23,492 nucleotides of DNA from Escherichia coli. GTDB lineage: Bacteria > Pseudomonadota > Gammaproteobacteria > Enterobacterales > Enterobacteriaceae. Below are positions 1,472 to 6,407 of this stretch, one piece after another; the stretch's first letter is position 1, and each line of letters begins with the position of its first letter. The notes beneath the pieces are model-generated. The model was given only the letters and a program-made list of their open reading frames with translations, was not told the DNA's origin and did not search any database. The stretch lies in the NCBI RefSeq assembly GCF_003334765.1, contig NZ_QOWT01000046.1; one strand, given 5' to 3'. Made by a program: the position numbers and the translations under genes.

Positions 1472-1802
1472 ATTGATAACAGAGGGCGTTGCAGCGGGGT
1501 TGTCGCTTAAGCGTATGGTCAACCTGACAACCCGGTGTCCTCAACGGGGAAGGAATAACCCCGCCATACTTACCGCCGCGCCATTTCGCGGAGTGCCACA
1601 ACCGGAAGCGCACGGTCGAACTAAATTTAACGACACCGTACAGAGAGACCAATTTCGCCGTGCGCTTTCGCGTTATGCCCTGACTTTTCAGGGACATATC
1701 CTTTCAGTAAACTGTCAGTGCCGGATGTTCACCCGTGTCCGGCGCACGCACTCCACCTGACCCGTGGAGAACTCCTTAATTACCAACCCTCAGGAGGGTG
1801 AA

Positions 1803-2081
1803 ATGGATAAAAAGCAAATTGAGGCCCTGCAATCTATTATTGAAAAACAAGATGAAGCTATCAGGATTCTTTCATATCGCACTGATATGATACTAAATAT
1901 GCTTTCTGCATTAACGGCTGCGCTTGGTGGTACAAAAACAAACGTATACCGCGAAGTTGTTATTCAACAGATAGATAAATTTGAAAAAACCATACCAGGT
2001 ATTAATGCTCATCTTGCAGAACAAGAGAAAGACCATGCTCTTATGGCAATTTCTTCAGTAGCTCTCCCGAAAGTTGAGTAG
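1803..2081 (+). CDS. Hypothetical small helical protein (92 aa), AT-rich, opposite in orientation to the surrounding operon
   Basis: ATG at 1803 preceded by AGGAGGG SD at about 5 nt; product MDKKQIEALQSIIEKQDEAIRILSYRTDMILNML...; visibly AT-rich; 3' end overlaps the convergent minus ORF 2041..2454 by 41 nt. Confidence 0.5.
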   Translation: MDKKQIEALQSIIEKQDEAIRILSYRTDMILNMLSALTAALGGTKTNVYREVVIQQIDKFEKTIPGINAHLAEQEKDHALMAISSVALPKVE

Positions 2082-2454
2082 TTTTAATTGTTGTTTTGAA
2101 ATAATCACTGCTTTCACATTTGAGTGATTTCATGGCAATCCAAATGCGGGCCTCTGTGCCTGCATTTGGTTCCAGTTGCTGTAGACGTTTTGCGTCTTCC
2201 AAAAGTAAGGCGATAATGTGTTTCAGCTTCTCATCATTTGCTTGATTCTTGTTTTCAGGCGAATTCTGTCCGCCGAATAGGCGCTTCTCTTCATACAGAC
2301 CTATAAAGGCACGACGCACGTTACCGGATATAGTATCGATGGTTTCTTTTTCTACGGTACTCAGGTCAAGAGTCGCCAGTTGAGAGCGAACCACATTCGA
2401 TGCCATTTCCTGGAATGGTACTGGTAAATCTTTAAATTCCATCGTCAACCTCAT
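2041..2454 (-). CDS. Hypothetical early-left-operon protein (137 aa)
   Basis: Complete minus ORF; its ATG (2452-2454) overlaps the TGA of the upstream ORF (TGATG coupling); a second in-frame ATG lies at 2440-2442. No recognisable motif. Confidence 0.5.
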   Translation of the reverse strand: MRLTMEFKDLPVPFQEMASNVVRSQLATLDLSTVEKETIDTISGNVRRAFIGLYEEKRLFGGQNSPENKNQANDEKLKHIIALLLEDAKRLQQLEPNAGTEARIWIAMKSLKCESSDYFKTTIKTTQLSGELLKKLP

Positions 2455-2687
2455 CAGTCAGTGTTTCTGGTTAACCAGCGACGCGCGCCAGCTTCAGTTT
2501 TAAACGTTTTGCTTCTGGTATACGTCATCGCGGTAAACGTGCCGTCCTGGTTGGGGAACACGCCACATACCAGAGATTCGTTGTTGCCAAGATTGAGCAT
2601 ATCCATGTTGACCTCATTTCCCCTTAACGCCGGGGTAGCGGAACAAAAACCTGCTGCATAGTTATTAAAGTTGAACCCTGCCGTCAT
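2454..2687 (-). CDS. Hypothetical small protein (77 aa, or 50 aa from the internal Met with GAGG SD); possibly YdfA/YdaF-like
   Basis: First minus ORF downstream of the repressor gene; internal start MDMLNLGNNESLVCGVFPNQDGTF... has a better SD than the first ATG. Family assignment is recollection only. Confidence 0.45.
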   Translation of the reverse strand: MTAGFNFNNYAAGFCSATPALRGNEVNMDMLNLGNNESLVCGVFPNQDGTFTAMTYTRSKTFKTEAGARRWLTRNTD

Positions 2688-2871: not shown

Positions 2872-3291
2872 CTATGATGCGTTTTGTGCTTTCTTTTTAC
2901 GGATTTCTTCGTAGATCATATTGTAATACTGTTTTTTCTCTTCAAGAGTTTTTAATAATTTATCCGCTTCACTTTCTGGCAGTTCGTCTAAGAGATCTAA
3001 AAAAATACGTTGTCGTGGCGTTAGAACCCTTGTTTCATAACTGGAGGCTGTGTTCGTTGATGATGAAACGATACCATCCATCCATCCCCGGGGTAACCCA
3101 AAGGACTCTTCGATAATCTCCACCATATCATCAGCGATCCGTTTTTTTCCCTTTTTCCCCTCTGGGTACAACATTCTTGATACATAAGAAGGCTCGCGCC
3201 CGATCTTTCTGGCCACGTTAACCGCTTTACCATCGCATTTCTCATCACGAATTTTGATGAGTTGCTGTCGTCTAAATTCATATTTGTCCAT
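2872..3291 (-). CDS. Prophage repressor (cI/DicA-like HTH protein, 139 aa)
   Basis: Divergent from the Cro-like gene across an operator-bearing intergenic region; HTH-like segment KAVNVARKIGREPSYVSRML; C-terminal LPESEADKLLKTLEEKK resembles the DicA C-terminus as I recall it. Confidence 0.7.
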   Translation of the reverse strand: MDKYEFRRQQLIKIRDEKCDGKAVNVARKIGREPSYVSRMLYPEGKKGKKRIADDMVEIIEESFGLPRGWMDGIVSSSTNTASSYETRVLTPRQRIFLDLLDELPESEADKLLKTLEEKKQYYNMIYEEIRKKKAQNAS

Positions 3292-3391
3292 AGGTAAATA
3301 ATAGATGCGATTACCGCAAGGTAAACAACCTGTGGGTATTGACTTTTGTTTACCTGTGGGTATTCTTTGCTGTGTTTACTAAGGAGTAGCT
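3292..3391. promoter_or_regulatory. Divergent promoter/operator region (right-operator-like)
   Basis: Direct repeats CCTGTGGGTAT (x2); TTGACT, 16-nt spacer, TATTCT promoter-like elements facing the Cro-like gene; AAGGAG SD before the ATG at 3392. Confidence 0.55.

Positions 3392-5211: not shown

Positions 5212-6407
<1,196 letters not shown>

Follow-up and report, generated by a model that had tools for sequence, protein, structure and literature searches.

ORF92, an open reading frame (ORF) of 92 codons in an Escherichia coli prophage, belongs to a set of at least 15 small cargo genes, unrelated to each other, that take each other's place with the start codon as the exact boundary. It was analysed in a stretch of 23,492 nucleotides (nt) of contig NZ_QOWT01000046.1 (assembly GCF_003334765.1), referred to here as the window, where it lies on the plus strand within a leftward operon. 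The exact exchange of cassettes at the start codon, the structured leader that the cargoes share and the breadth of the slot they occupy take it beyond an ordinary hypothetical prophage gene. We give an even chance to the reading that ORF92 is a moron, an accessory gene with transcription of its own, in a hypervariable slot that lies antisense within the dicB/kil-type early-left operon of lambdoid prophages of the Rac/Qin/PPompW type; it would be expressed in the lysogen, silenced on induction and likely engaged in phage-phage conflict.

Small prophage cargo genes in noncontiguous operons or hotspots are already known as a kind, and it is the ORF, the leader and the slot for which we found no description in the searchable literature. 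Nothing was found there on WP_000358771.1 (the ORF92 product), on the leader sequence, on KilS or on ydfC antisense transcripts, and a paper on Rac transcription factors mentions neither sieB nor ydaF.

Cargo genes exchanged at the start codon

ORF92 runs on the plus strand from an ATG at 1803 to a TAG at 2081 (phrog_18692), and is nested within a longer GTG ORF starting at 1764. An AGGAGG Shine-Dalgarno (SD) site at 1792-1797 lies 5 nt before the ATG. The same 92-residue coding sequence is called by RefSeq/PGAP in the E2348/69 region, which is 98.6% identical to the first 3.5 kb of the window and 100% identical over 1700-2500. An earlier inspection of the letters alone (the sequence-only reading) had described ORF92 as an AT-rich frame with a strong SD site, transcribed opposite to its operon, and this description was borne out: GC content is 0.353 in 1801-2100, compared to 0.553 in 1501-1800 and 0.45-0.48 on the right (35% against 45-55% in the flanks), and all flanking genes are leftward.

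Comparison by blastn with prophage PPompW_132418 located the boundary of the exchanged segment. Homology extended over 1-1802, ended one base before the ATG and returned at 2292, inside the gene that converges on ORF92, so that the alignment was identical as far as the start codon and divergent beyond it. In PPompW_132418 the slot is filled by an unrelated 77-residue plus-strand ORF, and the exchangeable cassette, 1803-2291, has no homology to the equivalent region of that prophage. What is exchanged is ORF92 together with the 3' half of its convergent neighbour. Outside the insertion lie the promoter, the leader and the SD site, which are a resident platform common to many alternative cargo genes. 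The AT-rich composition had been read as a sign of later insertion; this is upheld for the coding sequence, as homology breaks at the ATG and Qin-like phages are empty there, but not for the promoter, leader and SD site upstream, which were not inserted.

The layout has three counterparts in K-12: Rac has the pair sieB/ydaF, e14 has ymfI/ymfJ, and Qin has the leader with nothing behind it. Rac sieB, a gene also present in lambda and P22, shares slot and orientation with ORF92, antisense between the kil/small RNA end of the operon (kilS/kilR in Rac) and the DUF1391 gene, here ydaF, with which it overlaps convergently. Empty sites were found in the Qin-like phages Tritos, 606R7 and PhiR42_1 and in K-12 Qin, where homology stops at 1788 and is followed by the ydfC stop codon. 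Filled sites extend beyond E. coli. Salmonella Rac-like prophages carry an ORF92 orthologue, at 72-74% amino-acid identity, with a 71-residue convergent partner, and a P2-like prophage (locus L016) carries a 44%-identical homologue antisense to its early (cox) operon, overlapping a 214-residue gene by 41 nt. One further homologue adjoins the integrase in a restriction-modification/TacA/AAA_15 island, and others have an S24-type cI repressor gene directly to their right.

To gauge the breadth of the slot, a sample of IMG/VR viral contigs was scanned with a 16-mer from the leader, which gave 121 sites, 115 of them with the full element. Among these 115 true leader sites, 60 had a cargo gene and 52 had no ORF. 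The cargo ORFs, of 59-105 residues, stand at a fixed distance behind the leader and belong to 15 unrelated families; for four to five families the leader is identical right up to the start codon. Two families are YmfI-like (NF051477, below cut-off) and one is ECs1072-like. The cargo of L083 and L132 (80-84 residues) contains a CPxC...CPKH pattern, suggestive of a zinc ribbon, and the 99-residue cargo of L105 is weakly matched by the ECs1072 phage-associated family. In complete E. coli genomes, part of an 801-nt query (window 1700-2500, covering the leader and the N-terminal module of the partner gene) was matched in 3,494 of 5,426, at up to 6 places per genome; ORF92 itself is complete in 124 of the 5,426. 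ORF92 has two marks of a moron, presence or absence among related phages and deviant GC content (0.35 vs 0.45-0.55). A third, a terminator of its own, is missing, as no intrinsic terminator was found past its stop codon.

A structured leader shared by the cargoes

The conserved leader, a 5' untranslated region of about 85 nt (1716-1802, plus strand), is far better conserved than the ORF92 coding sequence. Of 15 loci compared, 14 carry the 16-mer CCGTGTCCGGCGCACG without any change. Hairpin 1 (1719-1744) has the form GCCGGA-N12-TCCGGC, with GCCGGG/CCCGGC in L019, and hairpin 2 (1751-1769) occurs with at least six different stem sequences. These are followed by a pairing helix between an anti-SD segment, CUCCU at 1772-1776, and the SD segment AGGAG at 1792-1796, which outside the window takes the form CUCCAU(U):(A)AUGGAG. 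The helix is 92% paired, and two of its pairs are changed on both sides (AU 20 and UA 12 in one, UA 16 and AU 12 in the other). Its covariation was 0.140, compared to 0.047 in shuffles, with much of the signal coming from few clades.

A putative sigma-70 promoter for ORF92 lies at 1685-1713 on the plus strand (TTTTCA, 17-nt spacer, TAAACT), with a predicted start at about 1719-1721. In every unrelated upstream context a -10-like hexamer is present 4-7 nt upstream of the start of the TGCCGG hairpin, most clearly in L029 (TTGAGA-N17-GATAAT) and also, for example, in L010 (TAAAAT), L016 (TGtTATTAT) and L017 (TGcTATACA).

The leader travels with the gene. Scores of the covariance model, R1, were 96.9 bits for the window leader, 88.6 bits for the sequence preceding the 44%-identical homologue in the P2-like prophage and 51.6 bits for the empty site in K-12 Qin; weak but correctly placed matches were obtained upstream of two 40%-identical homologues. 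The leader accompanies homologues of 40-47% identity into the P2-like prophage, the integrase-adjacent island and the S24-type cI neighbourhoods. R1 found nothing upstream of Rac sieB or e14 ymfI, so that in this respect Rac sieB, whose upstream region has no conserved leader, differs from ORF92. Searches of Rfam, at permissive thresholds too, gave no family matching the leader. When genome contigs were scanned with the 16-mer, the matches listed were all chance occurrences in high-GC genomes, so that the scan is uninformative on taxonomic breadth.

We assign the leader to the plus-strand transcript because it accompanies the gene where there is no dicF, because pairing with the SD site is meaningful on the plus strand only, and because the whole leader folds better on that strand in 34 of 43 variants. 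That it might instead be part of a leftward DicF precursor was considered and set aside, since it travels with the plus-strand gene where dicF is absent. In K-12 Qin (L141 2526-2635, minus strand, corresponding to NC_000913.3 ~1,649,025-1,649,134) the hexamer and both hairpins are present with no SD site and no ORF. The leader there runs directly into the 3' end of ydfC, antisense to it; it may be vestigial, or it may serve to express an antisense RNA.

The ORF92 protein and its convergent partner

ORF92 is a genuine protein-coding gene under purifying selection. Three pairwise comparisons between the window and two Salmonella-type loci gave ratios of nonsynonymous to synonymous substitution rates (dN/dS, or omega) of 0.25, 0.18 and 0.08. 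For the core, codons 25-57 (YRTDMILNMLSALTAALGGTK.NVYREVV.QQI), the ratios were 0.04, 0.04 and 0.00, with about 12 synonymous changes vs two replacements. The family is small, at 33 clusters among 5.8 billion proteins, as might be expected if ORF92 were a chance or annotation-only ORF without a product. This explanation is effectively refuted by the selection analysis, with dN/dS far below 1 and the synonymous changes spread over a conserved core of 33 residues. The SD site is conserved as well, remote homologues of 24-33% identity keep nine invariant residues, and the AlphaFold2 model is confident.

The first search, of 5.8 billion proteins, found 22 clusters, nearly all from E. coli, together with orthologues in Salmonella prophages at 71-82% amino-acid identity, which answers the call of the sequence-only reading for a homology check. 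Two profile searches, one of them against 1.84 billion cluster representatives, added members at 33-47% identity from Salmonella, Klebsiella oxytoca and metagenomes. The 91-residue cargo of L023 and L040 (MSTENDEIINSLIRQ...), which stands behind the same leader, is a remote homologue of ORF92 at 24-26% identity, and two deeply diverged alleles of one family therefore share the slot. In the Salmonella prophage locus L008 (6001-6318) the last ~18 residues of the ORF92 orthologue are replaced by an unrelated C-terminus. This orthologue directly adjoins the repressor gene, without a convergent partner, and has a ParE/Phd toxin-antitoxin pair in its vicinity.

ORF92 is predicted to encode a soluble protein of three helices. 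AlphaFold2, run with an alignment of 14 sequences, placed helices at residues 3-40, 46-58 and 69-85 (pLDDT 80.7, pTM 0.63). No matches were found in Pfam or NCBIfam and no relative in a sequence search of the PDB, and Foldseek searches of the model against the PDB and AFDB50 returned self matches and generic helical bundles only. The earlier description of a helical product with no recognisable motif thus agrees with both the model and the searches. When ORF92, its partner and 20 alternative cargo and partner proteins were compared with Pfam, NCBIfam, PADLOC and PHROGs, only PHROGs of unknown function and sub-threshold matches were obtained; PADLOC gave no match for 10 alternative cargoes. A type II toxin-antitoxin assignment for ORF92 was rejected, as the only match, to a RelB-like model, reached 15.9 bits against a cut-off of 50 and the gene pair is convergent, not co-directional.

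The partner is a minus-strand gene that had been described as encoding 137 residues. An ORF of that length exists (2041-2454), but PGAP places the start at the second Met (MEFKDLP...), a start that is conserved in relatives, giving 133 residues (2041-2442). The protein is a mosaic of three parts: a constant N-terminal module beginning MEFKDLP (2257-2442; PHROG match to residues 5-66), a YmfJ-like module (2101-2238; PHROG match to residues 73-118) and a 19-residue tail that reads into the ORF92 cassette (2044-2100). The N-terminal module is common to the convergent genes of nine other cargo families, and residues 73-112 are 75% identical to residues 2-41 of e14 YmfJ over 40 amino acids (E = 3e-20). 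The 41-nt convergent overlap with ORF92 (2041-2081), another point taken from the letters alone, is as described, and it is retained in Salmonella (L002-L005 and L010) and in the P2-like prophage (L016).

Does this overlap mark a cognate pair? ORF92 and the convergent gene could form a module of defence and counter-defence, or of toxin and antidote, as in Tha/Ith or Tai, with one partner made in lysogeny and the other produced from the early-left operon on induction as a neutraliser. The exchanged cassette does cover ORF92 and the 3' part of the partner, the 41-nt overlap is kept down to 44% identity, most cargo families have partners with a cassette-specific C-terminus of up to ~160 residues, and known noncontiguous-operon defence systems couple a defence gene with its inhibitor. 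However, the part of the partner specific to ORF92 is only the 19-residue tail, which is not conserved between E. coli and Salmonella and evolves fast: in the two Salmonella-type loci the tail outside the overlap had a dN of 0.47, compared to an omega of 0.06 for the YmfJ-like module. Within the overlap, the ORF92 frame had a dN of 0 and a dS of 0.44, whereas the partner frame had an omega of 1.0. In addition, ORF92 homologues occur without such a partner in L008, L017, L019 and L020, and the YmfJ-like module accompanies several unrelated cargoes. The fast tail, the selection on the ORF92 frame in the overlap and the partnerless homologues argue against a specific protein-protein pairing for ORF92; an obligate protein partner was rejected on this evidence of selection and co-occurrence, and we consider the cognate module unlikely. 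Cognate pairing may apply to other cargoes whose partners have long specific C-termini. The partners in L051, L083 and L105 combine the constant MEFKDLP module with cassette-specific C-termini of 80-160 residues and no known domain, a pattern reminiscent of polymorphic proteins whose head is constant and whose tail varies.

Expression opposite to the early-left operon

The host element is an E. coli lambdoid prophage with its integration site at ompW. Its left end has the early-left and immunity layout of the DicA/Qin type, with all genes on the minus strand. ORF92 is nested in this operon as in a noncontiguous operon: upstream of it lie the DUF1391 gene (2454-2606) and the 133-residue partner gene, and downstream DicF small RNA (1419-1470; Rfam RF00039, 76.7 bits), which together with dicB (1056-1244) makes up the distal part, and a DUF1482 gene (868-1059). 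A DicA-like repressor gene is at 2872-3291, also on the minus strand; it, the DUF1391, dicB and DUF1482 genes are placed from the E2348/69 record.

Between the repressor and DUF1391 genes is an inverted repeat, TACCCATAGGTA...TACCTATGGGTA (2793-2829), with a 16-bp stem and T-runs on both strands. Its arms resemble two direct repeats, ACCTGTGGGTAT, at 3329-3372 between the repressor and cro-like genes. The two sets of repeats are probably the left and right operators, and 2793-2829 probably combines a left operator/promoter region with a bidirectional terminator. A plus-strand scan of 2081-2793 found no intrinsic terminator, so that an ORF92 transcript would run antisense across the first two early genes, and the 2793-2829 repeat is the first such structure it would meet. 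Within the YmfJ-like module, a strong hairpin at 2132-2182 (arms CCAAATGCGGGC...GCCTGCATTTGG) has no U-tract and is not a canonical terminator. Folding of 2070-2200 gave -41.8 kcal/mol (z = -4.27). The hairpin sits in the codons for an EPNAGTEARI motif, is also present in e14 ymfJ (L142 ~2470-2520), and could be a processing or pause site for both strands.

We propose that in the lysogen the early-left promoter is repressed and ORF92 would be transcribed from its own modest promoter near 1720; as the surrounding operon is the repressed early-left operon, a gene nested in it should be on in this state. The 5'-terminal hairpin may stabilise the mRNA, and the anti-SD helix may throttle or condition its translation. 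The transcript would continue antisense through the 133-residue and DUF1391 genes toward the left operator, and this read-through could also damp leaky early-left expression. On induction, leftward transcription would cross ORF92 on its way to dicF and dicB, and shut-off could follow from polymerase collision, cleavage of double-stranded RNA or both. The lysogen would thereby contain the product, and lytic growth would proceed without it. The shared position with sieB, the rapid turnover of cargoes and this predicted lysogeny-specific expression suggest a role in phage-phage conflict. ORF92 would most likely act in superinfection exclusion or abortive infection, through binding of a protein target.

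The antisense transcription might itself be what is selected, damping leaky expression of the toxic dicF/dicB/kil functions in the lysogen, with the cargo ORFs as passengers. Such a role fits the lack of a terminator from the ORF92 stop to the left operator region, the empty sites (K-12 Qin included) that keep promoter and leader without an ORF, and the reports of analogous K-12 pairs as excludons. We nevertheless think it improbable as the whole explanation, as the protein is under strong purifying selection (omega of 0.04 in the core), the SD and anti-SD segments are conserved, and the family is also found where the dicF/dicB operon is absent. A protein function and an antisense function are compatible, not mutually exclusive.

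A further alternative is that ORF92 is an anti-defence or host-takeover protein, Acr-like, made from a repressor-independent promoter at infection and in the lysogen. The cargoes are small (59-105 residues), diverse and without known domains, and they lie at a fixed locus beside conserved flanks, as at anti-CRISPR and anti-defence loci. The antisense nesting, however, predicts shut-off at the onset of early-left transcription, the opposite of what early anti-defence would need. The family also has no homologue among sequenced phage isolates, and no similarity of ORF92 to known anti-defence folds was found. We regard this alternative as quite unlikely.

Several points count against a lysogenic exclusion gene. 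The transcription and function of ORF92 are themselves inferred, from sequence. The candidate promoter matches the consensus at 8 of 12 positions and falls under the promoter-scan threshold. For hairpin 2 alone the minus strand was the more stable in 25 of 39 variants, and folding energies give it no strand assignment. PADLOC (2.0; 5,027 defence models) had no match for ORF92. No homologue turned up when 50,697 sequenced phage isolates were searched by tblastn, which implies that the carriers may be mostly defective prophages. The likeness to SieB stops at position and orientation: ORF92 did not align with Rac SieB in BLASTP at E <= 100, and SieB is a membrane protein of 162 residues, whereas ORF92 has no transmembrane segment (19-residue Kyte-Doolittle maximum 0.93, compared to 2.19 for SieB). 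Proteins of 59-105 residues are below most known defence proteins in size and equally typical of anti-defence or host-modulating proteins.

How does the locus compare with known systems? SieB is expressed from the prophage, and P22 controls sieB via antisense RNA (review PMC12197685). The sieB-ydaF and ymfI-ymfJ pairs were reported as convergent excludons, gene pairs whose transcription overlaps and is mutually exclusive, in at least 50% of 58 MG1655 transcriptomes (PMC12288877), and ymfJ rises by about 4.8 log2 late in the SOS response, ymfI not to the same degree (PMC11002266). This literature on the two K-12 pairs fits the noncontiguous-operon model. The e14 genes are a convergent overlapping pair directly left of a CI-type repressor; the N-terminus of YmfJ is shared with the ORF92 partner, and the leader of ORF92 also precedes two alternative cargoes of the YmfI family. 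ORF92 itself has no match to the NCBIfam YmfI model (NF051477), and is thus not a YmfI homologue.

In the prophage defence systems Tha/Ith of Staphylococcus aureus phage 80alpha and Tai, a phage operon encloses an antisense gene that has a promoter to itself, and lysogenic and lytic expression are exclusive (PMC11087260, PMC11364771). The gene enclosed in Tha/Ith encodes the inhibitor, and the operon around it is the cI operon of lysogeny. By contrast, the operon around ORF92 is the lytic early-left operon, and it is the nested gene that should be lysogeny-specific. The ORF92 locus has no homology to Tha, Ith or Tai. The P2/P4 hotspots and BstA beside the repressor gene share with it a fixed position, conserved flanks and fast-exchanged, compositionally deviant cargo near the immunity region (PMC9122126, PMC8585504). 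It differs from them in having a single cargo of 59-105 residues without matches to known defence models, and in one promoter and translational leader common to all cargoes, a feature not described for other hotspots.

Should the cargoes prove to be exclusion or defence factors specific to lysogeny, the slot would provide a compact, minable catalogue of minimal anti-phage proteins (60-100 residues), and the locus a built-in, experimentally tractable layout for self-silencing. The shared leader would be a handle for finding more cargo, and a candidate new regulatory RNA. A bolder version, which we offer tentatively and with more doubt than belief, holds that the leader is a new class of cis-regulatory RNA gating cargo translation, for example as a thermosensor or infection sensor, and that the slot is a widespread Enterobacteriaceae reservoir of very small anti-phage or exclusion proteins, self-silenced by early-left transcription, of which ORF92, with a new three-helix fold, would be one. 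ORF92 alone has modest practical value until a phenotype is found.

Elsewhere in the window, an IS5 transposase ORF of 326 residues (5280-6260) lies directly past the replication gene. In E2348/69 that spot is taken up directly by a DUF977 gene, and the strain from which the window comes therefore appears to be IS5-inserted in the early-right region. Further right, Rfam and ARAGORN located a sok antitoxin RNA of a hok/sok-type locus (9350-9524), three tRNA genes (Met-CAT, Arg-TCG and Arg-TCT, 14049-14298), two copies of the STnc100 small RNA (14374-14564 and 14842-15051) and an IS009 element (23273-23471), which are the usual late-region content of lambdoid prophages.

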